Positions 4,757-60,589 of a stretch of 64,000 bases of DNA are shown piece by piece; position 1 is the first letter of the stretch; every line of letters begins with the position of its first letter. This DNA comes from Raja brachyura (lineage: Eukaryota). Both the position numbers and the translations under genes were made by a program. The stretch is taken from the NCBI GenBank assembly GCA_963514005.1, contig OY740805.1:30194001-30258000 (forward strand). The letters run 5' to 3'. Below the pieces are notes generated by a model. The model ran no database searches and was not told the DNA's origin. It saw nothing but the letters and a program-made list of their open reading frames with translations.

Positions 4757-4792
4757 TTCCAAGAGAAAAGACTTCTGTTGGCGGCCAATCAG
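4757..4792 (+). other. Candidate 36-nt phase-1 micro-exon (xPREKTSVGGQS)
   Basis: ttttaacattacag|...tcag|gtatat. Confidence 0.45.
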
Positions 4793-5104
4793 GTATATTG
4801 ATTATATTTTAATGTATGTGCCAACTAAACAAAACCTCGCCGCACAATGACGTTCCGTTAACAGCCTGAACGATCACCAAATAAAGCACGTTGGCAAAAA
4901 TGCAATTTTCTATTCATAGAATGAGCCGCCTTTGTACTTTGTACACAATGAAACATGTTAATTTGCTCATGACCAATGAATAACCGAAGACGGTAAAAAC
5001 ATCCGAGCGGATAGTGTTGCATTTAGGCATATAATCGAATTTTCTAAATTAATCATGCGTTTTATTATTTCCGTGGGAAATTATTTGAACATCTTGAAGT
5101 ATAG

Positions 5105-5530
5105 TGCTAACTACATCAATGAGCTCCCCTGTCGAGACCAATCGAATTTCTAGAATTTTCACGTTAATTCGAACATGGAAGGAAATATTTCAACTATGAA
5201 CTTAAAGATAGAAAGGGGGAAGGCGGGCAATTTCCAATTCGACCATGCACTGCCTGAGGCGAAATAAATGCTTCCATTCAGGGAGATAGAGGAGAACTTT
5301 ATGTGGGAATAGGAAATAACAAACAATATTGCGTAGCATTGTGAGTGTGAAAGTGACAGTTATGTATAGTAATTTGCAAACGACAGGTGAACTAATCTAA
5401 CCCAGTTTCAAGTTTGCGCTTGGGAATTGCAATGTTGTCGATCTTGCACACCCTCCACGTAACTGGTTATGTTTATACCGGTTACTCTCGTTTCATCAGA
5501 CATCCGAGAGACAGGTTAATTATAAATGAA
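5105..5530 (+). pseudogene. Possible highly decayed B30.2 (PRY-SPRY) exon
   Basis: Mixed-frame fragments FRPC, CFHSGR*, LYVGIGNNKQYCVAL and PPR..LLSFHQ. They follow the order of the SPRY motifs RFDxxPCVLG, GFxSGRHYWEV and RVGVYLDY..LSFY. Judged by eye only. Confidence 0.3.
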
Positions 5531-7104
5531 ACACACAGAATAATTAAGTAACTCAGCAAAACAGGCAGCATATCTGGGGAGAAGCTATTGGTGACGTTGT
5601 AGCGGCGCCTGCTGACGCACGTAGCTATCGAACCCGGCGTTCGGAAGCCGCGGTCACGTGGCTCGGGAGGGGCTGATAGGGGCTACTATCACGCGGTAGG
5701 AGCTCTGCCACAGACTCTGCCTCGAGGCTGTTGCCTTATATCAGAGACCCGCTGACGATCGCTAAGTACGATGGTTTGAAGGCATTCCTGCTCCACACCT
5801 TCGGTATCAGCAGTAGAGACAGGGCGGCGAAGATCCTGCGCATGGACAGTGTCGGGGACTCTCATCTACCATCATGGCAAATATGCCAGACCTGACGGAC
5901 GGGCACCACCCATGTCTGCCCAGACGAAGTCCGCCTGATGCTCGGCGGGGCTGATTTCTGCGATACCCAACATCTCGCAGAGAGAGTCGACGAGTTGTGG
6001 GCCACAGACGGCGGGAAGTTTATGCCTTCACCCACTCCCGTCACGGTGCGGGTGCAACAGAGACGAAATCGGAAGAGCAAGTCCAGCCCAGCGCCGAGGA
6101 AGCACCGACACCGCCGGACATGTGCAGCCGAGGACGTTGGTGCTACTGCCATCGCCGCCACAGTGCCGAACCCCGAAGATGCCGAAGCCCCTGTTCGTTT
6201 CAGGGAAATGCCTCGGCCGATCGCCCATAGATGCTAACGCGATCGGCAAAAACGAACGGCTCGACCTCCTTGATAGCCACATCGTCCACCATTTCCTGGT
6301 CGACTCCGGTGCACATCCAGCATCCTTCTACCGACCGCCCGAGATATCCGCGTCCGAATGGTAGGACCCGTCCTCTCGGCCGTCAACGTGAGTGACATTC
6401 TCACTTACGGAACGCGGAACCTGGACTTATATTTCGACACCCACCCGTATAGGTGAACATTCGTATATGTGACGTCGCCCAGCCGATATTGGGGGACTGA
6501 TTTCCTGTGCACGTTCCCCATGTTAGTCGGTGTGCGAGGCGGCATCATGGTTCCAGTGTCCGACCTGAGCCCTGCCATGCCGTGCAACCCGTCCACGCGC
6601 CAACAGCAACTCGACGAGGTAGTTGAGATCCAGCAATCTTTCGCGGCCCTTCTGACTGAATTTCCAGGGTTGCTCACGCCTCGGTTCGACGGGGCCGCGC
6701 CCCGTCATGGCGTGTTCCACAACACACCCACCGAGGGCCCATCGGTTCACGCCCGCGCGCCGCCTGCTGCCCGATAAACTGCGCATCGCACGAGACGAGT
6801 TCCAGCTCATGGAAGGCATGGGGATTGTCGGATAACCTTTGGGCTTCCGTTCTGCAAATGGTGCCCAAAGCGTTCGGGGGTTGGATAACTTGTGGTGATT
6901 ACAGGCGTTTCAATGCCGTAACCTCGACAGATCGGTACCTAGTCCCGAACATCCTAGAATTCTCGGCTCATTTGGAGGGCGCAACCTTCTTCTCGAAGGT
7001 TGACATCTTCCGCGGATATAAGCAGATTCCGGTCCATGCCGACGACGTCCCTACGACGGCCACCATCAACCCTTTCGGTCTTTTCGAATGGCTAAGAATG
7101 CGTG

Positions 7105-7230
7105 GTGGACAAAAGTGCTGGAGAAACTCAGCGGGTGCAGCAACATCTATAGAGCGAAGGAAATAGGCAATGTTTCGGGCCGAAACCCTTCTTCAGACTG
7201 ATGTAGCGTGGGAAAAAGGGTACGAAAGTC
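7105..7230 (-). mobile_element. Penelope-like repeat fragment with a minimal hammerhead-like motif, inside the Gypsy RT
   Basis: The - strand at 7171-7197 reads CTGAAGA-A-GGGT-TTCG-GCCC-GAAAC. Confidence 0.55.
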
Positions 7231-7239
7231 AAAGTCAAA

Positions 7240-7940
7240 GTCCCTTGAAGGCAGTCACGGGTGAAATTATTAAGGGCAACAAGGAAATGGCAGAGGATTT
7301 GAATTAGGTACTTCGGATCTATCCTCACTAAGGAAGACACAAACAATCTGCCAGATGCACTGGAGGATCTAACGGGCTAGAGGAACTGAAATAAATTATC
7401 ATTAGGCGAGAAATAGTATTGAGTAGGCTAATGGGACTGAAGGATGATAAATCCCCTGGCCTGATGGTCTGCATCCCAGGGTGCTCAGGGAGGTGGCGCT
7501 CGAAATAGTGGACGCATTGGTGTTCCTTTTCCAATGTTAAATAGATTCAGGATCAGTTCCTGTGGATTGGAGGATAGCTAATGTTATCCACTGTTCATGA
7601 AAGGAACGAGAGAGAGAAGGGGGAATTAAATAAACCTGACTTCCGTGGTGGGAAAGATGGTAGGGTGAATTATTAAAGATCTAATAATGGAGCATTTTGG
7701 ATAGCAGTAAAATGATTAGTCCAAGTCAACGTGGATTTATGAGAGAGAAATCATGCGTGACTAATCTTTTGGAATTTTTTGAGAATGTGACAAGTAAAAT
7801 GGATGAAGGGGTGCTAGTGCATGTAGTGCATCTAGCCTTTCAGAAAGCCTTTGATAAGGTCCCGCACGGTAGTGTGCTGACTAAAATTAGAGCACAAGTT
7901 ATTGGTGGTAGGGTATTGACATCGATAGAAAATTGGTTAT
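7240..7940 (+). mobile_element. Internal CR1 ORF2 fragment inside the Gypsy RT
   Basis: [30 protein letters not shown]. Confidence 0.85.
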
Positions 7941-10710
7941 CAGAAAGTCGCAAGCACGGGTCGGTGATCAACCCTGTGAAGTGCCAGTTCGGATTGCGCT
8001 CCATCTCATTTTTGGGACACAACATTACCTGCTACGGCGCACTGCCGCTGGCCGAGGAGGTAGACGCAATTCGTCGCTTCTCGAGGCCACTATCCGTCAA
8101 GGGCCTGCAAACATTAATTGAAATTGTCAATTTCTACCACCGATTCGTCCCGTCAGCAGCCGCCATCAGGCGGTTGTTGTTCCAGTGTCTAGCAGGCATG
8201 CCTAAAGACCTGGTCTGGTCCAAGGAGGCTGCGATAGCTTTCCAGGGAGCTAACACAGCGTTGGCCAACGCCACCATGCCGGAACACCTTGGAGAACCGC
8301 CAGTAACGGCCCTCACCATGGACGCATCTGCCGTCGCGGTGGGTGCTGTCCTTGAGCAGCGGGGAGGTAGCTGCTGGGTGCCGTTGGCGTTTTTCAGCGG
8401 GCAGCTGCGGGCCTCGGAGTTCGAGTACAGGGCTTTCGATCGGGAGCTCCACGCGCTTTGCCTGGCGATCCGCCGGTTCCTTTATTTCCTGGAGGGGCGC
8501 GCGTTTACCGCATCCACAGACAACCGCATTCACGTTCGCTTTGAATAAGGTGTCCGATCCCTGGTCCGCCATGCAACAGTGGCACCTCGCCTATATATCC
8601 GAGTTCACGACTGAATTTCGGTACATGGCGGGGAAGCTGAACGTTGTGGCTGACGCGTTGTGGCTGATGCGCTGTCCCTGAGGTTTCCGCGTCAAGCATC
8701 GGTGTGGATTACGCGGAGCTGGCCGCTGCCCAACGGTCTGATTCCGGCATAGGCGATTACAGTAATGCTGAATCGGGCCTTAAATTGGCTGAGATTCCCT
8801 GCGGCGCCGCCGGCGTGCGTGTCCTTTGCGATGTGTCAACGGGCAAAGCCCACCCTATTGTCCCGATTGCCTGGAGGCGTCCGATTTTTGACACCACCGA
8901 CAGTCTGGCTCTCCCATCCATTCGCGCCACCTCTGCCCTGGTCGCAGTTAAGTTTGTCTGCCGCGGGTTACGAAAGCAGGTCGCAATATGGGCCCGCTCT
9001 TGTATCCCCTGTCAAACTTCCAAGGTGCAGAGGCATGTGCGCCCGCCCGTGCAGGATTTCGCTGTTACAGACGGCAGGTTCCTGCACATCGATGACGACC
9101 TGATGGGTCACTTGCGTGTTTGCGTGGGGCCACTCACTAACTAACTATTGTAGATAGGTTCAGCAGGTGCGCCCTCCGCTGATGCTTTCGCATGGGTCAT
9201 TGTCTCCCTTTGGATCGCTTGTTTCCGGGTAACTTCAGATATTACTATCGATTGTGGGGACCAGTTCACGTCCTCCCTGTGGTGTGGTATGGTGTAACTG
9301 TACGGCGCGAAGCAGCACCAGACAATTACGTACCGTTCGGAATCGAACGGTTTACTTGAGCGTTTCCACAGACACATCCAGTCGACGTTGAAAGCCCGGC
9401 TCACCGACCCCAATTGGGTTTATCAGTTGCCCTGGGTTCTCCTAGGCATCAGAACTATGCTTAAGGAAGACCTCAACGCCTCCTCGGCTGTGCTGGTTTA
9501 TGGCTCGTTTTTGCGGATACCTGGGGATTTTCTGCCCGCCACCCATGATCAAGAGGTCCCGGCTTCGGCGTTGCTAGCTGACCTTCGCTAACGGGCGTGC
9601 GCGTTAGCCCCGGTTCCCACTTCCCGACACGGGTCAGCGGCGGTGCATGTGCCTACTATGTAATGGGATTGTGCTTATACTTTCCTTCGTAGGGATGCCC
9701 ACGGCTCGTCGTTACAGCGGGTGTACGAAGGTACATCGACATTTACGTTGGACATGGGTGGCAGGGAGGAGTTCGTCTCCGTCAGCCGCTTTAAGCCATC
9801 CCACGGTGATGAAGATAGCCCGGTGGTGGTGGCCACTCCGCGGCGTAGTGGGCGCCCCCCGGCCGTTTAGCCGCCCTCTGTACCTGTTACCCCCGGTGAT
9901 GTTCCACCGACCCTTTATGTTACGCCCGTCCATCCTTGGCGTTTGTCGCGTCCCCCCCGGTTCTGTTTAGCGGCCCCAACTTTTACAACCGCCCCGGGAC
10001 CTCGGAATACGCGTTGCGGTCGAACCGTACGGTTACCCGTGCGTTTCCCTGCCGCGGATTCTGGGAGGGGGGGGGGGGGGGTGGTGGTGGTGGGTGGGGC
10101 ATGTAGCGGCGGCTGCTGGCGCACGAAGCTATCGAACGCGTTCGGAAGCCGCTGTCACATGACTCGGGAGGGGCTGCTGTTTTCGCGCGGTTTCGCTTTC
10201 GCGCGGCAGTTGTGTGTTGACCACCTTTGTGGCCAGAGGTGTTTGTGAGGACCTGTATATCAAGGAGTTGTTTCTGAAATAAATAAGTGCATAAAAACTT
10301 GGTTGCCTTTCTTACATCCACCAAAACGTTACGGTTCGTGACCTATTTTTCCGATACGAAACTCACCCATTCCTTCTCAGCGGAAATGTTGCCTGTTCCG
10401 CGAATTACTCCTGCATTGTGTGTATATGCTTGGGGTAAACCAGTATCTGCCGTTACCTCCGAAAAAAAGGTAAATGAGTCCGTGGTGCTGGGAAGGAGCA
10501 AGTAAATCACTGGCAAGCGGATGTGCTTGCGAGGTGAATGAGCTGCATTGTTGCAAGACATAATTAAAAGGGGAGCTACAGGTGGAATTGCTGTGGAAGG
10601 GGAGGCGGCCTGGACTCCTTGGTGTTACTAACCTCCTACTGAGTCACAGTAAGGAACAAAATGTTTTCAGTGTGTTTTGGAAACTTAAATTTGGATTAAT
10701 TTATTTTCAG

Positions 10711-10737
10711 ATTTTCGGAGACTATTCAAAGTTTTAA
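10711..10737 (+). other. Candidate 27-nt phase-1 micro-exon (xFRRLFKVL)
   Basis: ttattttcag|...|gtaagt, consensus splice sites. Confidence 0.5.
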
Positions 10738-11050
10738 GTAAGTAACAGTGTATCCATATGTTGGACAACGTGTTAACATAGTACTGATAAGTAAGATGCA
10801 AAATGCGTAATGCATTGATCAAACAATCATAGATTTGAACGTTCAATTCAAAATCGTATAACGTGACATGTTATAATTATAGGGAAATACTGCATTTGAT
10901 AGTAAATTTCTTGAGAAATAATTAAAATATTTCGCGCCATTAGGAGTACAATCATCACTCTGGAATAGCATTCCATAAAAAAAGTAATTTCCAACCACGT
11001 TTGGTTTTCAAGTTGGCCTATGTATTTCATGCTCACAGCTTGGCAAGAGT

Positions 11051-11325
11051 GGCAGCAAGGTGGCGCAGTTGCAAATTTGTCGGATTCGATCGCCACTTGA
11101 GTGCTGTCTGTACGGAGTATGTACTTTCTCTCCGTGATCTGCGTAGAATCTCCGGTTTCCTCCCGCACTCCAAAGATACACAGGTGTGTAGGTTAATTGG
11201 CTTTGTAAATGTTTTTAAAATTGACCCTTGTGGGGATAGCATGGTGTTATTGTGTGGGGATCGCTGGTCGGCGCGGTCTCGGTGTGCCAAAATGGGCACT
11301 TTCCGCGTGGTATCTCAAAACTAAC
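11051..11325 (+). mobile_element. tRNA-derived V-SINE (HE1-like)
   Basis: A-box GGTGGCGCAG, B-box-like GGATTCGATC, and V-domain core CTCCGGTTTCCTCCCGCACTCCAAAGA..GGTTAATTGG. Confidence 0.8.
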
Positions 11326-11947
11326 ACGGTTTTAAGATCTGACTATATTCCTGAGCAAGACATTCAGTTACATTCTTATATTGAGTTAATGCACAAGGAA
11401 ATCAATCGTACGTCAGACGAAGGATGAATGCGTGCCATTGATATCGGTCAGTTGTTGGACCTTCCCTGTTGTTTCCGTTCACACGCTTTTCGCCAATTTA
11501 TGAATGGACGTGAATAGACTGCGCCATATGTATGCATAGGCTTGATTTTTGGACACGTTGAGCGCTGTTGGTGGAGTTTTAAAGGGAAGGCTATCTTACT
11601 ATTGGTGTTAATTAATTATTGGATGTTGAATCCATGTTCATGATTACTAGCGCCAGTGGTCTCCAGTAGAGTTCCTGAATATTTTCTTATGTAGCTTTTT
11701 AAATGGTTGTGGGACCGAAGCGAACGTTTGCAGTTCTTCTTTGTTGAAAATCGACAAAACAGGTTGTCCAACAATTATCAATAATATAATGACATTGGAT
11801 TTGGAGTATTCTCGCCCTCGAAATATTATATTCACTAATGCAGGCAATACAAGGAACTGGGTCCTGAACATGAACGTCTAACTGACCTGGATATTAGTCG
11901 TGTCAATGCTATACTTTAGGTAATTTGTGAGGATGACTTGATTTTAG

Positions 11948-12223
11948 TTACCTTGCATTGCAAAGCCCTCCCCAAAATTGCGCATTGCCTGATTTCGAAC
12001 GGAGTGTAAAACAACAAGTGCAAATGGGAAATTGTTTAACCCATGCTACATCGATCAAGAAGCAAGCTCACTTCAATTTCAATAATCAGTGTGAATCCGG
12101 CAAAAGAGTAGAGACCGGGATTCAAGCCATCGCCAGCTTAATCATTGAAATCCACGACAAAGTGATGATATATTTTGTTGTCACAGAACCAACCTGTGCC
12201 TCCTCTCAAATTTCTCATAGAAA
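11948..12223 (+). pseudogene. Possible decayed IgV-like exon
   Basis: ttttag acceptor; fragments VTLHC, KW, KRVE..ASLII and SDDIFCC in mixed frames. Confidence 0.25.
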
Positions 12224-12249
12224 GTAAATGTGTATTTATTTAATGTATT

Positions 12250-38835: not shown

Positions 38836-40574
38836 ATATGACCAATTACGTCGTAGATAAAAATTGGCCATGAAAAATGAATACAAGACGAGGCTGGCGT
38901 TTGGTTTGCGTACGTGTTTATACAACATGTCTCAGAATACACTAGAAAACAAGGGGTATGGGGACGGGTATATTAATGCTGTTGTTAAGATTCCTCAGAC
39001 AAAATGTTGATGAGGATTTATTTTCTTAAACTGTCAGCATAGCACCTAACATTGATTTTACATGACATTTGCTTGACCTGGTGCTAGCGATCAAATTCAA
39101 TTGATCAATCTCTCAAGATTGCAAAGCTACTTGTTGTGATCAAATGGTGGTGGCACAAGGGTGTGTAGGCGGGATGGGGACTAGGTGAGTTGCGAGTGAC
39201 GAACGTTTAGAGGGATACGCCCAGGAATCATAAGTGCAGGGTTTGCAAACAATTGGTATCTGAAGGGACGAATGACATGTGCGGTTATTTTTTCCTTTTC
39301 CAACCGCCATCTATAAATTAATTTGCGGAATCTTATCGACTAATTTATCCCATATGACAGACACCATTCTTGCAAATAGTCAAAATAGGATGAGTGCATT
39401 CAGTCATCATGGCACTGACAAATCGCTCTTACTGGAGGAGAACCAAGATCAACTGCCCAATTTTATCTTGTATTCTATGGCATCACGATCGTTCAAACCT
39501 ATCATACATATTGCATTTCCTACACTAGCGATAATGAACTAGGCCAACCCACACATTATGGATTTCTGAAGTAGATGAAATTAATCCTGCGTTCAATGAC
39601 ACACCTTCTGGCACGTTGCAGTCTTTCCATCGTTCTTGACCCGAAAGTCTAATGTGTGACGGGATATTGCCATGTACTTGAAATAATGCAACTGTGACAA
39701 CACACTAAAAAATAGATGGCATACAGCATTTTGAATGACACCATACAACGTGAATTATGAGAGAGTGGTGGGTGGACGCATCACCACCTGCATCATATCA
39801 TTCGCACACATCATATCATTTGTTTTTTTTGTTTTTGTTTTTATGCATTATGCGTTTCGGTGGCAGTGACAACTAAAAGTGTGCCGCCCTTCATTTTTTC
39901 AGCACTGCAAACACTGCTAGATGTGTATATCGAAACAGGTATTATTTGGCTCCTCAGATTTGCTGCGAAACATTTTTAATTACTTATCCATACGCTCCGC
40001 TGTTACTTAAGGTCAATCGTCGTTCGGCGACCAATCATTCAAAGTAGAAATGTGAATTGCGAGATTCCTAATTCTGGCCTTTGAAACCTCGATACTTTAG
40101 GGACCCACGTGTGACGTGCTACATTATTGGCGTGTGGCGTTGATCAGCCAAAACGGTGTTATTCAGGCCTTGAAACGAATTATTTGATTGTGCTGTCACC
40201 TTGATGTCGACATGTGTATCCATCTGATCCAAAGTTGCAAGTTCACAAGTTATATTCGCATGATTAGGCCATCCGGCTCATCGAGTCTGCTCCGCCATTC
40301 AATCATGGATGATCGCTTCCTCCTATTCCAATTTCCGTGTCATCTCCCCATAACCTTTGCCACACGCTTTAATCAAGAATGTGTCTCTCTGCTTTATAAA
40401 TATCCACGCACCCCTACATTATTCGAAACTTTTGAGGTTGTTGCATGACACCATATCAATATAACATTAATATGTAATTAATATGTGCCAATATTTGAAA
40501 TGATTTGCAAATAAGGCAGTTAGGAAACTACACAATCTGCGCATATTCCTCTTCTCATATTCATAACAGTCAAT

Positions 40575-42700
40575 TTAGAACATAGATCATACCGCACAGG
40601 GACGATTCTTTGCCCCACACTGATTTTGCCGCACATGATGCCATATTAAACTGATCTCATCTGCCTGTATATGTTGCATATACCTTAATTCTCTGCACTA
40701 CCATGCGCCTCACGAAAAGCCTCCAAAACGCCAGTCCACCACCACCCGCAGCTGTGCATTCCAGGAGCCCACTACTCTGTGTAGAAACAAACTTGCCCAC
40801 TCATCGCCATTAAACATTATCCCTCTCTTCCATGTAGCTACGTCTTCTAGTGTTGGGCCTTCCTGTAACGGGGCAACCCGAGCTGCACGCATTCTTCCAA
40901 ATGCAACATGACCAAAGTCCCGTAGATGGACACTTGGAATCAATGCCGCCAGCAATGAAGGCAAGCATGACATACGCCTTTCCTGCCATCCTATCTCTTT
41001 GTGCTGACACATTGAGTGAGCTATTTACATGGCCTCCCAGAACCCTGGACACTGCTGTATAGGGTCTTGCCATTAACTGTATACGGTCATCAAAAATTCA
41101 GCCTCCAAATCAAGCAATCGAACAAACTTTATCGTGATTTAGAAATACATCGATAAATGCAATTCCAAACGAAATTCCGTTGTATTTGGCTCCCCGTGCA
41201 ACACGATAACAAACAGAAGGATAAAGTGGATAAAATGGATAAAAAGATGAAATGGATAAAAATATAAAATAGACAATGGTGGCAGCCCATTACATGGCAT
41301 TCAGGAGTCTGATGCCTCTTGGAAAGAAGCAGTTGCAAAACCTTGACGTTCAGCTCCTTGTGCTACGATATCGTTTGCCAGAGGGCTGCAGATTGGACAG
41401 TCCATGATGGAGATGTGTGGGGTCCTTTATAATATAGCTGGCCTTAGATATGCAACGTTTGGTTGCAATGTCCCCGATTGAGGAGAGATAAGTCCCTATG
41501 ATTTTCCCGCTGTCCTCACCACTCTTTGCACGGACTTACAGTCGGAGGCTTTACAGTCCCCAAACCAGACAGAGATGAAGCTGGTCAGAATACTCTCTAT
41601 GGTGCCCCTGTCGAAAGTGATGAGGACGGGATGGGGGAGGTGAGCTCTCCCCATCCGGCGCAGAAAGTGCCACCGCTGCTGCGCTCTCTTAACTATTGAT
41701 GTGATGTTATTTGACCACGTCAGACTGTTAGTGATCTGCACCTCCAGGAACTTAGTGCTGCTGACCAACTCTACATCGCTGTCATTCATGGGAAGTGGTG
41801 TGTGACTACCGTTTTTTTCCTGAAGTGGACGAAGACCTCTTGATTTTTCGACATTCAGAATCAGATTGTTCGTATTGCACCAGTCCACCAGTTGTTTCAC
41901 CTCCTCCCTGTAAGCCAGCTCATTGTCGCCCCGGATGAGGCCCACCACTGTTGTGTCATGTGCGTACTTCATGATGTGGTTTGTACCAAACCTGGCACAA
42001 CAGTCGTGGGTCATCTGGGAAAACAGCAGTGGACTCAGGACACAGCCCTGAGGGAAGTCGGTGCTCAGAGAGCTGATGTTAGATGTGTTGTTTCCAACCC
42101 GCACTGACTGGGGTCTGGCAGTGAGGAAGTCCAGTAGCCAGTTACACATGGGGGTGCTGAGGCCCAATGGACCCAGTTTGCTTATCAGGTGCTGAGGGAT
42201 GATTGTATTGAATGCTGAACTAAAATCCACGAAATGCATTCGCACATAAGTTTTATTCTCCGCTAGATGTTCCATGCTCAGATGGAGTATGGATGATAGA
42301 GCGTCGTCTGTGGAGCAGTTTGGCCTGTAAGCAAACTGATATGGGTCACGTGTGGAGGGGAATCTGTAGGTAATATGTTCCCTGACCAGCCTCTCGAAGC
42401 AATTCATCTTTGTGGGAGTGAGTGCTACAGGGCGGCAATCGTTGGGACAAAGTGTAGCACCTTACACTTGCTCGGGTTAAACACCATTGACAGTTTATCT
42501 GCCGGTTTATCCAGCTGTCCTGAAAGTTTTAGAGACATGCAGCTTTAGGGACATTGGGAAACTTACCAACTCATCTACATTTCCGTCCATATAATTAATT
42601 TATATCACAATCAACAGATATCCTAGCACAGATCCTTACGGGAATCCACTGGTCGTTAATCCAGAAAATCTATCTTCGTCCTCGACCCATTGCTGTCCTC
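40575..42700 (-). mobile_element. Old CR1 3' portion split by a Rex1 element
   Basis: CR1 RT C-terminus remnants (KAYVMLAFI, RVVGSWNA) at 40575-41120 continue at ~42455-42700. Confidence 0.65.
41125..42450 (-). mobile_element. Rex1/Babar-clade LINE, 5'-truncated RT fragment
   Basis: ORF 41496-42407: [49 protein letters not shown]. 3' end AATTTCGTT-stem-ATAAA. Confidence 0.9.
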
Positions 42701-43459
42701 TTTAGCCAGCATTACTATTTATACTATTTGCCCTACCTTCAACAATATAATTCGTCACTTACAAAAAAATACTCGGTCGTTCGTAAATCAGTCAGTAATT
42801 CGTTTATGTTAATTGTTACCGTCCCTTAGCATACAGAAACTATGGTGCAAGTTTTACAGACTACATATAGGAAATTATCAGCAATAATGACTGGGTAGAA
42901 AAGTAACTGGACTTCTATGGTCTCATATCATATGGCAATATCATTAATGTTGTGTCTTTTAATACCTTTCCTTATTTTCCATAAATTCCTCTCTCTCCAT
43001 TTCACCAAAAGCTCAATCGAAGTTAGTATGAATGCTGCGCAATATTTTGCCATATTTGCTATGCTGCTCATAACGTCTGAGACTTGCTATTAAAAGGGGG
43101 ACTGTTACAAGCTTGGATTTTTGCTCCTGGAGTGAGCGGTAATTTATATTGTGTAATTTTGAATGTCTGGTATTCGCAGACATTTGCAAAACGTTGTTAC
43201 AGCAAATATCCAACAAGTTAAATCGCACTACAGAATTATCTCATTTAAGTTAGAGATATCAAATAAATATATCAAGGAAATATATAAATAATCAACGCTG
43301 CGCAAATATGTTAACCTGTAGGTGAATTAGGTTGCTCTATCGGGCTGTGTGGTTGGACAACCTTTCACACTCAGTAATGACGTGTTAATTTACGCATCAT
43401 ATTTGGTTCACTTGTTCACTGGAAGTTTAACGAAAAATTGTTTATCATGTGCTTTGCAG

Positions 43460-43486
43460 AGGATGATATGGAGAAGTTAGAAAAGG
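43460..43486 (+). other. Candidate 27-nt phase-1 micro-exon (xDDMEKLEK)
   Basis: gtgctttgcag|...agg|gtaggc. A hydrophobic stretch YFAIFAMLLITS lies upstream at ~43040-43080. Confidence 0.55.
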
Positions 43487-45164
43487 GTAGGCACATGTGT
43501 TTGTAATCTCTCACAAATTAAAACGTTGAGATAATGTTATTTTATTTTTTTCCTTCTATTTTATGTGTTGTGTTATAGTGCTAAAATGTCATCTCTAGGC
43601 AACTAAGCCCGAATCCGAACGTTTAGGGTTATGACTATGACAAATAAATCAATTCCTCTAATCGGTTCCCATCTAAATAGACATAAAAATCCGAGAGGAA
43701 GTGTTGTTTTCATGCTCCAAATATGGGCAAGTCGGGCCGAAGTGCTATGTCCACACGGTGTCACTCAATTACTCAATGAATATATACATCTGATATTAAC
43801 TCGTAGCATTTGAATGGAGTACGTCACAATGAAAAAGCAGTGTGAGGCTTCTTCCGCTCGTAAGCTTGTGTAACCATTCAATCTATAAACAGTGTGGGGG
43901 AATTAGATGCCTTATGCTATGACCAGGTTATGGCAAACAAGGCAGTCCAACAACAAATCAGAGTGACTCGTATATATGCAAATGTTTCGCAATCCATATA
44001 GATTCATGGCCATATTTAAAATTCCAAACGCGACAAAACAAACTTTCCAGTCACTGTATCTCCCAAAATACAATGCATTTAACTATAATATGAACGTTTT
44101 CAATTTAACATGCCTCGGAGATTGAGGGAAAGAGCAACGCCTTGAAATTTTAGCTGATTATTTTTTATTGATGATATACCATTCACCGACCTTATGACTT
44201 GTTTTGATGTATAGATGATTTGATATTATTGAATGTGTTTCATAAATAGCCTTATCACCGTGTTAGCTCCATTGCTGATTCATTCAGACGGCGCAGATGT
44301 CATAAGAGATATTGTGAAAAATAGCCAATATTATGACTGGCGTTCCGCATTCCCAAGACACTACCCCACCCTGTATTCTTCAGAATGCATTTACCTTCAC
44401 ATTCTGCGTACATGACAGAGGTTGGCTTGCGCTGGAAAACAGCTAGCATTTGCAACACCAACACTCTTCTGGGATGCCCACTTCTACCCTGCCTTGACCT
44501 CCAACTGCCGCCGCGATACCGACGTTCTCGACTAATCCATCCCGACTTCCCATTCAAATTTCACCTCCTCCCATTGTGTACCACTATTCGCAATTCTCCA
44601 ATGAAATCCGCATACAATATAATATGATAGTTCTGGCTCATTAACATCCACTGTGCTGAGGAATACGGACAGGTCGCGAAAACCACCTTGTAACTGCACG
44701 TTGGCGATGAGTCCTCTGACGAGCACCAGGCCACAACTTCCCAAACCTTTAACGGGTCTAGTCCGTCCGCAGCTGATCCATTCTCTATATGCACATGTAC
44801 ATAGGTAAAAGCGTTTTAAATGGCATTATCGTTCCTGTCTCTTGCACTTCTCCGTCATCACGCTGCAGGCATCCGTTATTTCATGTGTAAAACTTCTTTT
44901 CCGCACATTTCGGTTAAAATTTGTCCCTCCCACATTAATGCTCTATCCTGGAGCTCTTGACATTTACTGCCTGAGAAAAAGGTTCTGAGCACGCCCTCTA
45001 TCAATGCAACTCCTAATTGTATAAACATTGCCTTTCACGCACTGGTGTTCTGGAGAAATCAATCCACGTTTATTAATCTCTTACACTTAATACGCTCTAA
45101 CCCAGATAGCATTCCGTTAATACTGTGCAGATCCTCCATCATCATGGAATGCAACTGCACACTG

Positions 45165-48100
45165 ATTTAATCCAAAAAATTAATACGGGAGGGAATTTTA
45201 TCAGATGGGTTAAATTATTTTATGATAAACCTACGGCAAGAATATTAACTAATAATATGTTATCTCCAAACATGTTTTTATCATGGGGTAATAGGCAGGG
45301 TTGTGCCTTATCACCATTGCTATTTGCCCTTATGATAGACCGCTGGCTGACAGTATTAGAAAGCATCCGAATATTCACGGATATAATACTAAGGACTAAA
45401 AGAATAAAATGTAATTATATGTTGACGATATTCTTTTATATATTACTATTACATAAACGAGTATCCCCACCTTATTAACACTAATCGAGGAATTTGGAAT
45501 TTTTCAGGATGTAAAATAAATTGGAAAAAAAGCGAAATTATGTCTTTGAAACCAGGGGATGCGAGACGCTTATTAAAATTCCCTTTCAAAATTGCAACAG
45601 AAAAATTCAAGTATTTGTGTATTGAAATTACGAGAAGACACAAATCATTATTTAGCGCCAATTTTATGCCCCTATTGAATAAACAATGTTATGATTAAAT
45701 GTTGGAAAACGCGACCGCTTTCATTGATAGGTAGAATTAACGATATAAAAATGGTTTTCTTACCACAATTAATATATTTGTTTCAAGCGATCCCAATATA
45801 TATTCCAAAATATGTTTTCAATACAATAGATTCTAATATCGCTAATTTTACTTCGGAGTCACGTGAGTGGCTACGCGAAGAAGTCCCGCCAGGCGCATGC
45901 GCGATATTACGTCCGCGCATGTCGCAGTGAATGGGCTGTAGGGCACAGTTCCACCAGCGTTAAGTAGAAACTCTCAGGTAAGTGATTCTAAAAACTTTGC
46001 CTGAGAGTATTTAACTCCGTAAAGCTGGCTCGAGAAGTCAGTAGGAGTTGGTGGTATGGTCAGGTAGGAAAGTTCGCTGGCGTGGGTCCACGGATTCACT
46101 AAATCGATCGGGTCGGGAAGTTAGCGCGGCAACGCTGGTTCCGATACCGGGTGCCGTTTACCGACAGCAGTTTCATTAGGAAGTGAACTTTCCACACCAG
46201 TTCCAGTTACTGAGGAGGCTGAGGCCACCGACAGTCTTAGAAAGGCAAAAACGAATATCTATTAGATCCAGGTTGTTAGACGAGTGTGAAGAAAATGTCA
46301 CTCCCCTGCAGATAATACAAAATGTGGGGGGGGGGGGGGGGGGATGCAGAATTCGGAGAAGATGTTCCAAACTCTGATAAAATAAGGGTCTAAGGGCCCA
46401 GTGATTCCCCAGCCAGCTCTTCAATAAGGCCCATATCAAGAGGAATTCATGGACTATCAGCAAGGGGATTTCCTTCCAGCGCCGTGTTTAGTGCTGGGGG
46501 ATGCCTCCCTAATATACGACTTGGGAGAAGCGGGGAAGGATGCGGCTGACCCATGCCTGGTGTCCCTGGTTATGTGCAGACACCAGAGCCCAAGAGCCAC
46601 GCTCCGGGTGTTCCGGATATTGCAATGAGTTTGCTTTTCCGGAGGGGACTGGTGAGGGAATGGAGGTATACCTTGCCAACAATATCAATTATTTAGTGTC
46701 TCACCAGCTCCAGCAATTATGATACAAGAAACTACCTATAAATATAAGACACCTGTTTACTGTGCATCACTGAAAATGCCCACGGTGAACCCAGTAAATC
46801 TGGGCACCCATGAGTCCTTCTATGAGAGGACAGGAGGTTCGGCATTAATGCGTCCTCCAACTGGTGGCTGAAGCAGTTACTGCATTTGGCACTATGGACA
46901 AAGTGACCATGATTACTCAAACTCGATAAAACATGTTGGCTCTATTATGCAATGCATTCTTTGAAGTAAATTGCATTAGAAATATCGCCGTCAGGTCAAT
47001 TGTCAATCAAAAGTTTTGCTGCACTATGTAAGGCGACAAATATACAAACGCCTGAGTTCCTGTTTGGAACGGACCTTGTCAAAGAAATACGTGATATTGA
47101 GGATGAGACGAAACAATTGATTTGATGTAGCCAATCATATCACGGCCACCTATTCGCAAACCATGGTTTGTGTACTGAAGGGCGGATCCAGGTGCTGGAC
47201 CGAGCAGGGGGAGGCCAGTGGGGCAACGAGGTTACCCACTAAGACAAAGCGGCTTCAACCCCAATATGAGCAGACAGAAAGCTTGCAGGCCAACTGCAGA
47301 GGTACAGGGAACTTTTGTTTAAGGTTCCGATGCACAACCTCCAATTGGAGGTAGATTACAATTGTTTTACAATGAATGGTGCTGCATAACATCTGATATG
47401 TTTATACTAAATACTGGGTCAGGTTCTACCATTGAGTTTATCTCAGGGATAGATCCACCTCAGCAGCACAAGCCAAATAAAATGTTGGTGTTTTTCAGCT
47501 CCAAAGACTGAACAGGTTAACGATGAGATTAAGAATTTATGCCAAAAAGGAGTGATTGAGAAATCACTCAAATATTGGAAACAGTTTGTGTCCAATACAT
47601 TTCTCAGACCTAAGAAAGATGGGGGTTGTAGAGTTATTCTGGACCTCACCCTCTTACATTCTTCACTTCTCTATAGGCAATTTAAATGGACACTTCGTTA
47701 CTGCAAAACAGCTGGTCTCACAAGGTTGTTATATGGCAACTATACATTTGCAAGATGCGTATTATTAAGTAACAATTCATGCTCATTATCGCAGGTACTT
47801 CAAATTTAATTGGATGGGACAGCTGTGGCAATATAAAGCATTGCCTAATGGATTAACTTCAGCACCTAGGCTATTTACTAATTGTCAAAACCTGTGCTAG
47901 GGCTATTGAGGGCCCATAATCACATTATCATGGCTTATTTAGATGATATCTTAATTATCAGCAACACCAAAGATTCAGCTGAGGAGTTGGTTGCAGTAAT
48001 CAAAAATGTGTTTGAAACATTAGGATTTTTGATCCATCCAACTAAGTCTAAATTACAGCCAATCCAAAATATTGAGCATTTGGGTTTTCATATTGATTCA

Positions 48101-51100
48101 GTTGATATGACAGTAACATTCCCAACAGCCAAGGTTGTGGATGTTGCTGATGTCTGTATTGCCGCACACAAAAAAAATATATACCTCCATCCGAGAAGTT
48201 GCTAAAGTCATTGGGAAATTGGTAGCAGTTTTCCCTGCAGTATAGTTCGGCCCCTTGCATTATCATATTGCAAAGAGCAAGAGAACAAGCACTAAAAGAG
48301 CATGCAGGCCATTTTGATTGGGTTATGCAGTTAACAACCACAGCTCTAGCAGAATTGCAGTGGTGGATTGCTAATGTCAGTCAAGCTCCCAATAACATGT
48401 TGGTGCAGGGACCTTCAATGATTTTACAGACTGGTGTAAGTGCTGTCGGATAGGGAGGCAATGGACATTGAGTCTGTGGGGGGTAGATGGAATGAACAAA
48501 AAGGTTTGATTCTACACACACAAGGAATTACTGGGGGCATTTTATGGGTAAAAGGCATATTGCTCCACAAAAAAAATAATTTACACGTTCATCTCCAGAT
48601 TGATAACACCACGGGAGTGGAATATATCAATCATATGGGAGGAGCAAGATCAGTTTCATGTGATAGCATGGCTAATCTTATATGGCATTGGTGTATTTCG
48701 AGAAACATCTGTCTTCAGCCATCTACCTACCAGGGGTAGACTATGTGGTGGCAGCCCATAGGTCACGAAAATTTTATGACAATTTAGAATGGGTGTTGAA
48801 TTCTAAGGTTTTCAAACAATTGTCACTCGATTGGGTTGCCAGACTTTGATCTGTTTGCATCCAGACTGAATCACCAGTTGCCTAAATATGTTTAATGGAG
48901 CCAGATCCAGGAGCAGTAGCTGTGGATGTTTTTTTCCTTTACATTGGGGGTACTCATGCTTTTATGCTTTTCCTCCATTTTGTCTGATTACGAAATGTCT
49001 AAACAAAATACCGCGTGACTCCGCCACAGGCGTTTTTGGTGGTCCTAGATTGGCCAACACAACCATGGTTCCCATTGATACTCAGAATGATGGTTCAGCC
49101 ATTCATGAGATTCCCAGCTGCAGTAATTTGTTGGTGCATCCGGTTACAGGAGAAAGTCACCAATTATATGACCGTATCAATTGTTGGTCTGCAGGTTCTG
49201 AGCAGACCATTCGAAGGCTTTGGATTGTCGAACAGGACCATGGAGGTTATCACTGCAACCTGGAGGAATATTACTAAAAACAATATGTGGTTCACATAAA
49301 GAAGTGTGAAATGTTTTGTGTACAATCAAATATATTTTACCATACTGCAAGCATAAGTGATGTGTTGGAGTTCCTTGCTAAATTGCATTTTGATGAGCAC
49401 TTGAGTTACAGTGCTATTAACAGTGCTCGGAGTGCTTTGTCCTCCTATTTTGGACAGTCCTCAGGACAACAAAGGATTGGGGCTCATCCGTTAATATCCC
49501 GATTTATGAGAGGAATTTTAACAAAAACCCTCCTATACCTACATATACAGAAATCTGGGATATCAGTATGGTTCTCACACGGCTTCGGCAATGGGCTCCA
49601 ATTACGTCATTGTCTATGCAGAGATGAACTCTGAAAGTGGTTATGCTAATGGCGCTGGTTTCAGCACAACGTGTACAAATATTACAATTGTTACGAGTAG
49701 ATTGTATGCATTTGTCTGTAGATGACATTACATTTTATGTCTATGATTTAATCAAACAAGGCAGGCCAGGTATGGCAGGAACCAAGGTGACGTTTAAAGC
49801 ATATTCTGTTGACCAAATGTTATGTGTAGTTAAACACTTAAGCCAATATATTGAGATAACAAGGAGTCTCAGAGGTTCTGAGACAACACTGCTCATCAGT
49901 CACAAAAGGCCATATAAAGAGTGTCAGTACAATCTATTTCTAGATGGTTGAAACAGGTTGCAAATTATGATGGAGTCAACACTCATGTGTTTGAATCTCA
50001 CTCCACCAGGGCGGCTTCAACATCCGTGGCGAAGGCTCAGGATGTGCCGCTGGACCAAATCCTCGCGGCCACATGATGGTCTAGAGAGTCGACATTCTCA
50101 CAATTTTATGATAAACCTGTGCAGACAGTGCCACGGTTTGGGCATGCTGGTTTTGGGTTACATTTACTTCATTTGCTTTGTTTATATCATTGTTTGTAAT
50201 TTCCTCCTGCGATAGAGAGGTTATTACTGATTTTTGTTATTATTGTTATTTAAAAAATAGTTATTGAATAATTTGAAGCAAAGTTCAATATATTATTCAT
50301 TCACCACTGTGGCAACCGAAGCAGTTTGCGTATGGAGTGCATCTACGGCATGTAAAAACAAAGCTTTGAAATATTCACGTAGTCACTCACGTGACTCCGA
50401 AGTAAAATAGTAAGATTAAACGAGAACCTACCAGTTCGAAGTTTGATCCTTATTTTATGAGGAGTTACGTTGAGGGATTACGTGCCCTCCGCTCCCACCC
50501 TCATAATCTAAGAGATCATCTGGTAGTTCTAGTCTTCTTACAGCCTCACTATGTTACTTCGGCTACATGTGTTTTCTGTGTTTCCACGCCGCTGCTTTGA
50601 AGTATGACGAGCATGCGCCTGGCGGGACTTCTTCATGTAATCCCTCAACGTAACTCCTCATCAAATAAGGATCAAACTTCGAACTGGTAAATTCTCGTTT
50701 AATATCACTATTTTATATGGGGTTATAGAGCACACAGAATTCAACGAACGCATCTGTGTAAAGCAAAAGAAGTAGGGGGTTTATCATTACCTAACTTTAG
50801 TTATTACTACTGGGCAGTGCACATAAAGAACATAATGTACTGGTATAGGAAAGATCTTGTTCTCACCGATAAAATTGAATAGTATAACATAAAAAATAAC
50901 CCAATTATTCACAATACAATAAGAATTTGGAAACAAATACAATTATCCATGAAATTAAAAAATCTATTTGTGCTATACCCAATATTGAATAATCCTGCAT
51001 TCAAAACATCTCTTATCGAAAAAACATATAAACATTGGGAAAGACTGGGAATTAGGAAAGTAGGAGATATGTATGAATTAGGAACATTGTTATAATTTCA

Positions 51101-51900: not shown

Positions 51901-52204
51901 GTAAGATTACTGACTTCAAGTCAGGTCGTGGGTGGAATTGTCTTAAAGTAATTTTCAGCCATGGAAAATTTGAACATTTTGACTTATATCGGAGATGGAT
52001 AAAGGATTTCCTGCCAGAGAGAACGCACCATTTGACGTGAATTTCGACGTATATTAAAAGAGAAACCGAACGTTAAATACATTTGCAGCGAAAAGAATGG
52101 TAACATACAAGAGGGGTTGTGGATTGCTGCCTCAGTCTGCAGTCTGTTTGTCTTTTTATCTTTTTTTTGTTGTATACATTTAAAAAAAAAATATTTTCAA
52201 AAAA

Positions 52205-54461: not shown

Positions 54462-54497
54462 AAATCAAGAAATTGGGAAAAAAAATAGCTGATTTGG
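54462..54497 (+). other. Candidate 36-nt phase-1 micro-exon (xIKKLGKKIADL)
   Basis: ttcctttccag|...tgg|gtttgt. Confidence 0.4.
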
Positions 54498-54949
54498 GTT
54501 TGTACAACTTCAGACGCTTCCCAAAACGATGAAAGAATAACATGTACGAAAATAATGAGTAGACATTTAAGTAATCAATTGGAATTATTGTGCGCGCTTT
54601 CTTTCATTTCTAAAATCAATACCTCAATATATAAATCGGCATGCAATATCTGCGGAGTGGGAATCCATTCAATACAATAAATAAATTATCGCTCTCAGTT
54701 TTGTTCATGTTCCCAAATATGATGTCGATTTCCATGTTTTACGATTATTATAAATCATAGATGTGCTAACTGTCGGGCATTTTCAAATGTGCGATTCCAA
54801 TCTTCTGCAAGTTTACGGTAGGGAAAGCTATCGCGTGTACACCATTGAACACTTGCTATACGTGGACATGAAATCGAATGCAAGGATCGTCGTCCACTGT
54901 CTCCGCCCCATATGATACATGCCGATGGCTTGCCACACAATACACAATA

Positions 54950-56750: not shown

Positions 56751-57159
56751 CTTGACAGGCGGTGGGCACTCGGCGGGAAGAATGCCTCGGCAGAGTCGTG
56801 AAACAATGTTCCAGGAATAACCTAACCAGATGGCGCAGCTGCTAAATCTTTAGAAAGAAATAGCAAATGCTGTTGTAAACCGAATGTAGACGCAGAAGCG
56901 TGAGTAACTCAGCAGGGTAGGCAGCATCTCTGAAGTGAAGGGACGGTTGACGTTTTGGGCCACAGCCTTCTTCAAAAGAAGGCATTCGTGCGGAAAGGAC
57001 ACCCATTGCCTCTACCCAGGGATGTTGCTTGGCTCGCTGACTTAGTCCAACTTTTTGAACAGCTACTTCTGGCAACAGATGAAAACTTGCGTTCTCTGGC
57101 ATTTTACAATTATTTTAAATAGGCCAGCATTTGAAAATTAGTTTTGTTAATTCAGTACA

Positions 57160-57401
57160 AGCAGGAGATGTTAATGATTTGAAAAAAAATACGATTTATT
57201 AAGACATTCTCGTGCGATCTTCAATTTCGTTAAATTGTAATTCCACAGTTAAGGGAATACACAGTAATAGTTACATTTCGCATTCGATAGACGTGCACTT
57301 CAGATTGAAAAGAATGCATTCTTGGATCACATGCCAGGCCCACGTGCATAAGATGAGTTGTGACAATCGCCATTCGATTGATCTCCATCAATGGATCATT
57401 G
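57160..57401 (+). pseudogene. Decayed Ig C1-set exon, SIRP/NCR3LG1-like
   Basis: SYISHSIDVHFRLKRMHSWITCQAHVH..SIDLHQWII ends at a phase-1 donor g|gtgaag. Resembles SIRP C1 SIHSTAKVVLTREDVHSQVICEVAH (recalled from memory). Confidence 0.4.
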
Positions 57402-57487
57402 GTGAAGGTGATAATGCCTGTTGCCTGTCAACTAAAAACATTGTAATTTTTTGCACAATGCTTTATTCTATTTTCCTTTGTCATTAG

Positions 57488-57511
57488 AGGCATGCGGTGG
57501 CAGCCGTTCCG
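57488..57511 (+). other. Candidate 24-nt phase-1 micro-exon (xACGGSRS)
   Basis: ttttcctttgtcattag|...ccg|gtaaat. Confidence 0.45.
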
Positions 57512-59629
57512 GTAAATGTTAAACCAAATGATATAGAGTCAATTAAGTACAAGAAACAATTGACAATTTAATTCCAGTTGTTGTGGTTGTATATAGAATG
57601 CTCGTAAATATAAACGATTGAATTGCACATTTATCAAGGGAACGAATGTGTTGTGTAAAACAAAATACAGTATAAGTTGGAGTCACTTAAACAACGGGGC
57701 AAATATGCTGGCGAGCAGAAAAAATAATCGCCAGACGTCTTGCTAATAACAAAACATCTGCCACAAGGAAGCAGGGAATTGGGAACGATACATTCCTGAG
57801 ATACTTATCTTCTGAAAGTAGAGAGCGAAGAGATGGATTTGGCTTGTCATTGGTAACTATTCCAGAAAACACTGGAACTGAAATTAAGCAACGAAAAGGA
57901 TCGACACAGTTTTTCATCAAAAATAATAATGTGCGCACGATTTGCACTTCAAGTATAAACATTTAACCACCGATTTGTTGCGAGAAAATGCAAAACAAAA
58001 TGTCTGAAATGTTGATTCTGAATATCATGTAAAGAAAACTGAAATATATGCTAAAATTCCTATGGATTCCTGAGGCAAATGGATGTGGAGACTGCGATAG
58101 GATTGACCTGGAGAATTGACTGGCAAGGATTTCCCATCAGATTTACACGTCCCCTAATCTCTATTGCGTATGCATCGCAAAGTTGGAGATTAGATGTGAC
58201 ATTACTATTACCTTTTATCACATGTGGACCCTGCGTGATCCAATCAAAATCTTGGAGAATGTACTATAAATAAACTGGATATGCTTTCATAAAGAAAAGA
58301 TAGACAGGAATTGCTGTGGTAACACAGCAGGCGAGTTAGAATATCTGCATCTAATGGATAGGTGATTTGTAGGGTCGGGGCAGGTCTTCCGACTGATTAT
58401 GGGGGTTGGTCTGAGGTTGGGGTTAGGAATTGAAGAAAGAATAGACCAGGACAAATCAGGCTGGTGGCACATGACATCAAGCAGGGAGTTTATCTGTTAT
58501 GCGATTGATGTCAAGGAGCAATGTGATGCCGATAGATACATAGTTGCGAACAGTGGAACTGATTAACTGACCTTTAGTAAAGTGGGCAAGATGGGAAAGA
58601 GCGAGAGCTGGACTCCAGTTCGGCACCACGGCGGTACGTCCAGGCGAGATGAGGGGAGGTTTTATATGTTCTGCCATTAATAGAATAAACAATATTAAAC
58701 GCTCCGTCAATAATAGAAAGAATGCTCAACTGTGCGATTAGTAGTGATTGTCTGGAGTGGAGATTTCCTAAGATTCGCGGCCGGTAGCTGCATAATTGCC
58801 CTCTCATGCTTTACCTGAATGGCACATCCCGGAAACTGAGAATGTGTCCGTAGGAGATAGACGCCCTAGTCAGAACACAGCACCTAAGTACCATACCAAC
58901 ACCATATCATCCTAAAGTATATGCCTGCGTCTATTCGGTCTGTCTTCGAGTATCAATCACGTTCCATTATTTGCTGTTCTGCGCTTACGTCGATGTGTTC
59001 GAGATACACAAGGAACATGTTCAGAAAAATGTCTTCACTTTGAAGCTGCTAACTGCATCAGAAATCTATCAAGGCTACGCCCGCCCATATAACACTCCAC
59101 GCAAGCATCAATGACATGTTTCGTGCGTTGTTAAGAGATTGCGTTCAGATAAGATCCAGTTACAAACATTTATTTTGTAATAAATCATTGCATTTTACGT
59201 GTTATGGTTGTTATTATTATCTTATATATAACGTTTCAAGGAAGTCTGATGTTTCGGGCAGTACTGATTAGTAATCCAATATGTTTTCTTTAGTAAGAGA
59301 TATCCGACAAAACTTTTGACAGATAATTATCCTGTACAATTAACTACCAATTGTACTTATTGAATCAATTGGCGTTTTCCATGCCCTTTCCTGAAATGCG
59401 TTCGTCATTTAGGCAATTAAAATGAACGCCTACTCCAAATTTAACTGAAAATATATACAGTCTGAAAGGTGATCAATATTTTAGATATCTTCAAATTCGA
59501 GGTTATTTCAAAACATATAGCCACGAATACCAAACGCTGGTGCCAGATATATAAGATGAAGGTATGTATAGAAGCGCAGAGACAAATAATTTAATATCAT
59601 ACTTGTACAATATCATTGTAAATATAGAA

Positions 59630-60235
59630 ATTCCGTCGCCAGATGTCATTTGAAGAGAGTGGAGCAGGAATTAAGCCTAAAAATCCCGAAAGACAGATGG
59701 GAAAAAATATCACATATATATATATATACAGAATGGTTCGATTAATGTAAGACATACTCTAATCTAATTTAAAATACTGCACAGACTAAGTTACTCAAAA
59801 ACTAAACTGAATTATTTATTTTTCCAAATGTATCCCCTATCTGCGACAAATGCCTATCTCAAGAAGCAACTATAACACACTCCTTTGCCTCTTCTATAAA
59901 ACTTCATAACATTTGGAAAGGAATCTTTGAAATCTTCTCAAATTTATTAAAAACAAAACTGAATTCCCTACAGAATTTATTATTTTTGGAATAGCAGGAG
60001 TCTGCTCTTTGTTATCAATATTTCAAAGACGTTTCCTCAATTATGGCCTAATAATTGGCAAAAAAACATACTTACATTTTGGAAAAATGCTTCTTCCCCA
60101 AATCTTAAAATGTGGATTGCAAGCATGTCCGAGACGCTACATAGTCAAGATATGAGACTCGTCTTAGAAGGAAAATCAGAGCAAGTTTTATAGATATGGT
60201 CTCCTTTGATTGATTAATTGCAAGTATAGCATGGT
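59630..60235 (+). mobile_element. Decayed L1 ORF2 3' fragment
   Basis: Similar to 51290-51890 (FKILHRL..CDKC..HSF). Confidence 0.8.
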
Positions 60236-60350
60236 GCAACACAATTTTGGAATTAAACCGATTCACGGACAGGGTGATGGGCGTGGTGAGAAATGAAGCT
60301 GGTTATTGATATCTAATTATTGATATCCTTCATACTTTTTTTCTTTTCAG

Positions 60351-60589
60351 TGAAACAGCTGAAAAGAGGTAAAATGATATTTAAGCATTTCAATAGGTTG
60401 CCATACTTGATCATGCTTATATGAGAAAACAATTTGAATGGGTTTAAAACAACCAACTTGAAAATCCGCATATTTTGTATTTTTCTCCATGAAAATATTA
60501 TTTGTAATATTGATTTAAAATTAAAATACTCATTGTTTCCTTTACATTTGATTTGATAACAGAGAACGAAAATCTTCTAAAATTACTTC
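60351..60589 (+). other. Two candidate phase-1 micro-exons: 60351-60368 (18 nt) and 60563-60589 (27 nt)
   Basis: ttcttttcag|..gag|gtaaaa and ttgataacag|..ttc|gtaagg. Spliced together they read KQLKR-E-NENLLKLL. Confidence 0.55.

Follow-up and report, generated by a model that had tools for sequence, protein, structure and literature searches.

Does a 64,000-nt window of the skate Raja brachyura (assembly GCA_963514005.1, contig OY740805.1, positions 30,194,001 to 30,258,000, with all coordinates below counted from the first letter of the window) contain a gene whose coding sequence is cut into exons of a few dozen nucleotides, and if so, what kind of protein does it code for? A first-pass annotation had proposed 11 such segments on the + strand, reading them either as one micro-exon gene missed by open reading frame (ORF) finders or as the tails of several paralogues like the butyrophilins (BTN) or the BG proteins of chicken. 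All 11 lie where they had been placed, with AG before and GT after, the lengths given for them and no stop in phase 1. The join of these segments was incomplete, as at least three exons (at 5500, 35648, and 39903) were absent from it, two of which are part of the 21-residue modules described below. We identified a chain of at least 14 likely micro-exons of 15 to 36 nt in one reading frame, totaling 363 nt across 55,833 nt. The likeliest reading, which we favor with moderate confidence and partly by analogy, is one large micro-exon gene coding for a rod, probably a member of a putative B30.2-tipped chondrichthyan family.

The exons measure, in genomic order, 36, 15, 27, 21, 15, 27, 27, 27, 36, 27, 36, 24, 18, and 27 nt, with introns of 194 to 19,283 nt and a density of 14 exons in 64 kb. 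All 14 are symmetric (phase 1-1, with a split first codon), keep their AG and GT and have an open frame. Once joined they read as 120 residues with zero stops, and none of the 91 possible exon-skip junctions introduces one. The exons are listed below, each with its score under an approximate splice model, taken either from the blind scan with a hand-drawn mask or from the acceptor-donor pair; the modules, and the organisms B and C whose contigs bridge some exons, are described further on.

4757-4792, + strand: micro-exon of 36 nt, phase 1-1, Gly/Ser linker-like (score 4.1)
5500-5514, + strand: micro-exon of 15 nt, not in the first-pass list (score 4.9)
10711-10737, + strand: micro-exon of 27 nt, hydrophobic at codons 2, 5, 6, 8, and 9 (score 5.1)
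30021-30041, + strand: micro-exon of 21 nt, R-x-K-R at its end (score 8.2; bridged by an organism C contig)
32991-33005, + strand: micro-exon of 15 nt (score 11.0; bridged by organism B contigs)
33401-33427, + strand: micro-exon of 27 nt (score 11.7; bridged by organism B contigs)
34629-34655, + strand: micro-exon of 27 nt (score 4.7; bridged by B and C contigs)
35648-35674, + strand: micro-exon of 27 nt, first half of module 1, not in the first-pass list (score 3.3; in heptad register)
39903-39938, + strand: micro-exon of 36 nt, second half of module 1, not in the first-pass list (score 5.9)
43460-43486, + strand: micro-exon of 27 nt, first half of module 2 (score 5.7)
54462-54497, + strand: micro-exon of 36 nt, second half of module 2, weak donor (score 2.3)
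57488-57511, + strand: micro-exon of 24 nt, Cys/Gly/Ser linker-like (score 8.8)
60351-60368, + strand: micro-exon of 18 nt, with the strongest sites of the window (score 13.0)
60563-60589, + strand: micro-exon of 27 nt, hydrophobic at codons 5, 6, 8, and 9, with weak sites under the model used (score 0.4)

The segments of the first-pass annotation had been chosen by eye, and it had named as part of its own refutation equally strong and frequent pseudo-exons on the - strand or in shuffled sequence. We scored every AG..GT pair of 9 to 60 nt blindly with approximate vertebrate splice matrices, keeping the best donor for each acceptor. With a mechanical mask covering self-BLAST repeats, Pfam transposon ORFs and DNA with a local GC above 45% (24,215 nt remain), 14 of the 20 candidates with a score of at least 4 on the + strand had a length divisible by three (3n) and were open in phase 1, versus 1 of 10 on the - strand (Fisher p=0.006). 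Local dinucleotide shuffles under this mask yielded 2.1 such candidates on average and never more than 7, and 0/300 attained 14. The direction was the same at other thresholds (7/9 versus 0/2 at a score of at least 6; 17/31 versus 7/34 at a score of at least 2), and a mask based on low-depth bins also followed it (6/10 versus 1/7, p=0.13), with a sample too small to be significant. A hand-drawn transposon mask (19,161 nt remain), made with the exons already known, gave 16/21 on the + strand versus 2/11 on the - strand, a count that 0/200 shuffles attained. With this mask, 20 blind 3n candidates were open in phase 1 in 20/20 cases, in phase 2 in 16/20 and in phase 0 in 11/20, and the scan recovered 10 of the 11 claimed segments as the best candidate at a score of at least 2 and 9 at a score of at least 4, the weak sites under the model used being those of 60563-60589 (0.4) and 54462-54497 (2.3). 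Equal numbers of pseudo-exons on the other strand or in shuffled sequence are thus not the case in masked, AT-rich, low-repeat DNA, although the strand contrast is lost without the GC mask. The micro-exon signal rests on AT-rich low-repeat DNA. We consider it highly probable that the segments are exons rather than products of chance.

The three added exons come from the blind list and were picked partly by the look of their peptide; they match the claimed exons in their purine- and GAA-rich make-up. Core exons are 62 to 67% purine with ~63 GAA per kb, while eight weak 3n candidates (282, 10381, 11039, 29063, 30193, 32636, 33057, and 34908) are 43% purine with 13 GAA per kb and were excluded from the core, as they are T-rich and GAA-poor as a set. 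Recent exon duplication was also ruled out: among 19 same-length pairs the best p value was 0.03, uncorrected, and the flanks show no exon-centered similarity.

What would such a chain code for? The best heptad signal is found in the exons at 35648 (27 nt), 39903 (36 nt), 43460 (27 nt), and 54462 (36 nt), which together give 42 codons, or six heptads in register, spread over 19 kb. The heptad contrast at the a/d positions of this run is 0.64, a value matched by 0/5000 residue shuffles and by 1.7% of random four-exon joins. In both 27-nt exons the core positions fall at codons 4 and 7 (7 being polar in the first), and in both 36-nt exons at codons 2, 5, 9, and 12 (12 being polar in the first). 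When the four exons are placed in all 24 orders, the top 8 are the 8 that alternate 27 and 36 nt, the genomic order included. The repeat unit is a two-exon cassette of 27+36 nt, that is, 63 nt, 21 residues and three heptads. The final two exons form another short zipper (contrast 0.55). By eye, a second pattern appears three times, in which a Gly/Ser/basic exon (4757, 30021, and 57488) is followed by a 15- or 18-nt exon and then by a 27-nt exon with hydrophobic codons 5 and 6 in all three cases, and also 8 and 9 in two of them. Exon 30021 terminates in R-x-K-R, a furin-type motif. The suggestion of a micro-exon gene overlooked by ORF finders is in part borne out, by the blind enrichment and by the heptad register carried over several exons.

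With one gene as the favored reading, all 14 segments would probably be internal coding exons, the gene itself would extend beyond both ends of the window, and the predicted spliced product is a segmented coiled-coil rod. Each exon would be recognized singly between introns of 0.2 to 19 kb, swollen by transposons. As all exons are in phase 1-1, any skip preserves the frame. The heptad register would be kept only by the skip or gain of a 27+36 pair, so that the length of the rod would be tuned in steps of 21 residues. The Gly/Ser/basic exons would split the rod into segments, each of these linkers being followed by a 15/18-nt exon and a Leu-rich 27-nt exon. We can picture a rod that dimerizes and holds putative terminal B30.2 domains apart for the multivalent recognition of a target, most likely in innate immunity by analogy with the TRIM and BTN proteins. 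The proposal builds on the view of TRIM proteins with a coiled coil and B30.2 as receptors that bind higher-order oligomers (PMC4455283).

Several results weigh against a single gene of this kind. The contrast between the strands hinges on masking and disappears without the GC-based mask: with the window unmasked it is not significant (25/60 on the + strand versus 17/49 on the - strand), and with no mask, a self-BLAST mask, or a self-BLAST plus Pfam mask the Fisher p value ranges from 0.12 to 1.0, so that only the 3n excess on the + strand survives (binomial p 0.002 to 0.05). The loss in unmasked DNA is expected if transposon ORFs provide open pseudo-exons on both strands. Neither a blind purine test (p=0.08 to 0.09) nor the branch-point motifs, present at 6/14 exons versus a background of 31%, reached significance. 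The 27/36 alternation is limited to 4 of the 14 exons, with the genomic order being only one of 8 equal orders out of 24, permuting the order of the whole chain gives p=0.04 to 0.32 depending on window size, and the first seven exons have no heptad signal (scores of at most 0.28). Finally, among 164 + strand frames of at least 45 residues outside the main transposon spans, no Ig, B30.2 or other non-transposon Pfam family reached the cut-off, zf-RVT being the only match above it and five more falling below. Neither did larger exons appear in the low-repeat blocks, where a scan for open exons of 61 to 700 nt gave, on the + strand, two acceptors with four weak readings between them, and phase 1-1 was not among these. 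A protein search with the open frame around exon 39903 (residues 30 to 72) returned seven candidates, none with an E value of 10 or less, but an 11-residue match could hardly reach that threshold, which makes this result uninformative.

The chain could also be the remnant of a gene that has decayed or fallen silent, or consist in part of pseudo-exons picked by eye. This would be in agreement with the dependence on the GC mask, with the weakness of several splice sites and with the density of transposons in the locus. We nevertheless regard it as improbable, given that no shuffle under either mask attains the observed count, that all 14 exons have retained GT, AG, and an open frame while none are recent copies of one another, and that a heptad register persists over four exons spanning 19 kb. 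A pure chance origin of the chain is very unlikely, while a recent loss of function through changes in another part of the gene is conceivable.

A different question is whether the chain belongs to one gene or to two. The gap 10738-30020 is the longest of the chain (19,283 nt), and the exons could be real and come from two tandem paralogous genes with their boundary within it, the second coding for a protein secreted as a precursor, with a leader of hydrophobic residues, the furin-type R-x-K-R that ends exon 30021-30041, and a mature coiled coil. Such a boundary would agree with the presence of the linker, 15/18-nt and 27-nt pattern on either side of the gap and with the R-x-K-R at an exon end, and it finds weak hints in a candidate terminal exon at 12187 and in a good donor at 29083 that ends a hydrophobic 21-nt segment. 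These and one further uncertain candidate are the following:

11039-11059, + strand: uncertain candidate of 21 nt, purine-rich (score 4.5)
12187-12227, + strand: uncertain candidate terminal exon from the splice-site scan, with an acceptor, a short phase-1 frame and a stop
29063-29083, + strand: uncertain candidate of 21 nt, hydrophobic, with a good donor, ~0.9 kb 5' of the 30021 exon (score 4.1; T-rich, unlike the core exons)

The two boundary candidates, however, score no higher than chance-level ones, the motif R-x-K-R arises easily in K/R-rich sequence, and the gap is mostly made up of transposons and a recent duplication of 3 x 2156 nt. No convincing first exon with an ATG and a signal peptide was found in the low-repeat blocks scanned. 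We therefore consider two genes rather unlikely, and a single gene is still the reading that we prefer.

Does the chain correspond to a micro-exon system that is already known? The tails of chicken BG proteins consist of exons of 21 nt, apart from a few that measure 18 or 24 nt, and the first codon of these exons is split; exons for Ig-V and transmembrane domains precede them (PMC5938342, PMC4046983). Our chain resembles these tails in that its numerous short exons are all symmetric and begin with a split codon (14/14), and in that heptads cross exon borders. In contrast to the one heptad per exon of BG in these accounts, exons here range from 15 to 36 nt and the unit is the three-heptad pair of 27+36 nt; the chain also has linker exons that break the rod and introns of up to 19 kb. 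Just 3 of the 14 exons measure 18, 21, or 24 nt, and the heptads that fill the whole tail in BG are clear here in the four-exon run (0.64) and in the final pair of exons (0.55) and absent in the first seven. As for the Ig-V, Ig-C and transmembrane exons of BG and butyrophilins, the 164 + strand frames contain no Ig match, a result whose scope is the window. Mammalian butyrophilins have only a few heptads ahead of B30.2 (PMC5938342), and butyrophilins are present in cartilaginous fish (PMC12841164). They resemble the chain in their phase-1 heptad micro-exons, with the terminal B30.2 being putative in our case, and differ in the small number of heptads between the membrane anchor and B30.2; our chain runs for 56 kb with at least 14 micro-exons, and neither Ig nor B30.2 has a match there. 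The sizes do not fit BG and the layout does not fit the butyrophilins, so the chain is assigned to neither.

The same comparisons bear on another possibility, a classical membrane protein with Ig domains, either a butyrophilin or BG-like, for which these exons would supply the heptad part of the cytoplasmic tail; its Ig and transmembrane exons would then be located 5' of the window. Symmetric phase-1 heptad exons are indeed the BG/BTN pattern (PMC5938342), and cartilaginous fish do have butyrophilins (PMC12841164). Against this, a single exon of the 14 has the 21 nt of the BG unit (three have 18 to 24 nt), at least 14 exons without a B30.2 match in 56 kb are far from the few heptads of mammalian BTN tails, and half of the chain is not heptad-like, so we give this explanation little probability. 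The second proposal of the first-pass annotation, tails of several BTN/BG-like paralogues, is likewise not supported, since the exon sizes are a misfit (3/14) and no Ig or B30.2 exon was found among or between the exons. A looser kinship with the BTN/BG proteins, through heptad micro-exons with a putative terminal B30.2, is likely.

The micro-exon genes (MEGs) of schistosomes offer another parallel. They have small symmetric exons, carry a signal peptide and seem restricted to platyhelminths (PMC4350168). The chain is like them in being a coding region of tiny symmetric exons whose skipping leaves the frame intact, and unlike them in belonging to a vertebrate (the transposon content, too, points to a skate) and in a heptad register that would limit skipping to pairs. 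The counterpart of their signal peptide would be a first exon, of which there is no convincing example in the blocks scanned, the hydrophobic segment 29063-29083 being uncertain. Mammalian TSBP1/C6orf10, considered as a micro-exon analogue, found no support in the literature consulted and was not used.

Part of the chain is also contained in sequencing runs. The interval 30000-39999 was found in six runs, two of an organism A (shares of 0.91 and 0.81), three of an organism B and one of an organism C (0.32 to 0.36 for both), the A runs being possibly the source sample and hence not independent. No RNA run was among those listed for this interval, which carries no information on expression. Over 29500-45000, contigs of B and C differ from the window by 2.4 to 3.0% and bridge all seven core exons located there. 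Only 40 of 1562 differences and 12 of 155 indels were listed, and the absence of any in an exon or splice dinucleotide comes from a sampling too sparse to be informative. All three organisms also have a second copy, ~83% identical, of the low-repeat DNA flanking the exons at 35335-44950, and locally a third contig appears. Second contigs occur at 35335, 39565-40023, and 43226-44833; B and C show two or three contigs at the majority of these positions, and in organism A the second contig over 43661-44580 has 152 other letters and 42 gaps (~83% identical). From these alignments we infer that the second copy would be a paralogue predating the split of A, B, and C.

The rest of the window is largely occupied by mobile elements. 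The GC content is 34 to 58% per 2-kb bin and the observed/expected CpG ratio is 0.78 overall, high against the norm for vertebrate intronic DNA, and close to 1.0 in several 2-kb bins; this is possibly a region of low methylation. Among 31 long ORFs, domains of reverse transcriptase (RT), endonuclease, RNase H and integrase type were the sole Pfam matches, ~19.5 kb of the window is repeated inside it by self-BLAST, and neither Rfam nor ARAGORN gave any match. A decayed long terminal repeat (LTR) retrotransposon at 5598-10176, with RT, RNase H and integrase matches, short direct terminal repeats and a fragment of a long interspersed element (LINE) nested at ~7100-7940, occupies the intron directly 3' of exon 5500-5514. 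At 14499-20972 a 2156-nt unit is found three times in tandem with copies 99.4% identical, and could be a very recent duplication or an assembly artifact. The unit stops within a LINE fragment, with a short imperfect microhomology common to both breakpoints, and the splice-site scan gave no + strand exon candidate within it. A LINE pair of CR1 type is located at 1163-3643 (-) and 24310-27224 (+), with an open frame of 826 residues for endonuclease and RT and the other copy broken, inverted, 88% identical and ~20 kb away. The region 36399-36604 is a 22-nt minisatellite of ~9 copies adjoining a GC-rich repeat. A decayed element at 45845-50715 contains frames for RT as well as inverted terminal repeats that are split (50403-50484 and 50634-50715), a DIRS-like pattern. 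At the 3' end, an N gap at 60624-60861 lies just upstream of 61318-64000, which has an open 801-residue ORF1-like frame followed directly by the start of an endonuclease-like ORF2 that leaves the window; neither has a Pfam match, and the arrangement is Tx1/L1-like. Further exons may be hidden in or past the gap.

The coding of coiled coils by micro-exons is a known principle, of which the present variant is apparently new and unpublished; in a literature search, mostly open-access, there was no paper on chondrichthyan micro-exon coiled-coil genes among the matches listed. We can even imagine, as a speculation that is more doubtful than the single gene itself, that cartilaginous fishes have a family of giant genes, still unpublished, that consist almost entirely of exons of 15 to 36 nt, in which 27+36-nt cassettes would form a rod of tunable length, linker exons (one of them with a furin-type site at its end) would give cleavable segments, and paired skipping would supply an immune-type B30.2 head with rods of many lengths, as a vertebrate counterpart of micro-exon variation in schistosomes. 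The locus raises the question of how runs of 15- to 36-nt exons would be defined across introns filled with transposons, and whether skipping removes them in pairs that preserve the register. If the chain is spliced, it would represent a class of vertebrate genes invisible to annotation based on ORFs or homology, with 363 coding bases in 56 kb and no exon longer than 36 nt, and it would extend the micro-exon coiled coils of BG and butyrophilins to a two-exon, three-heptad cassette in the oldest lineage of jawed vertebrates.

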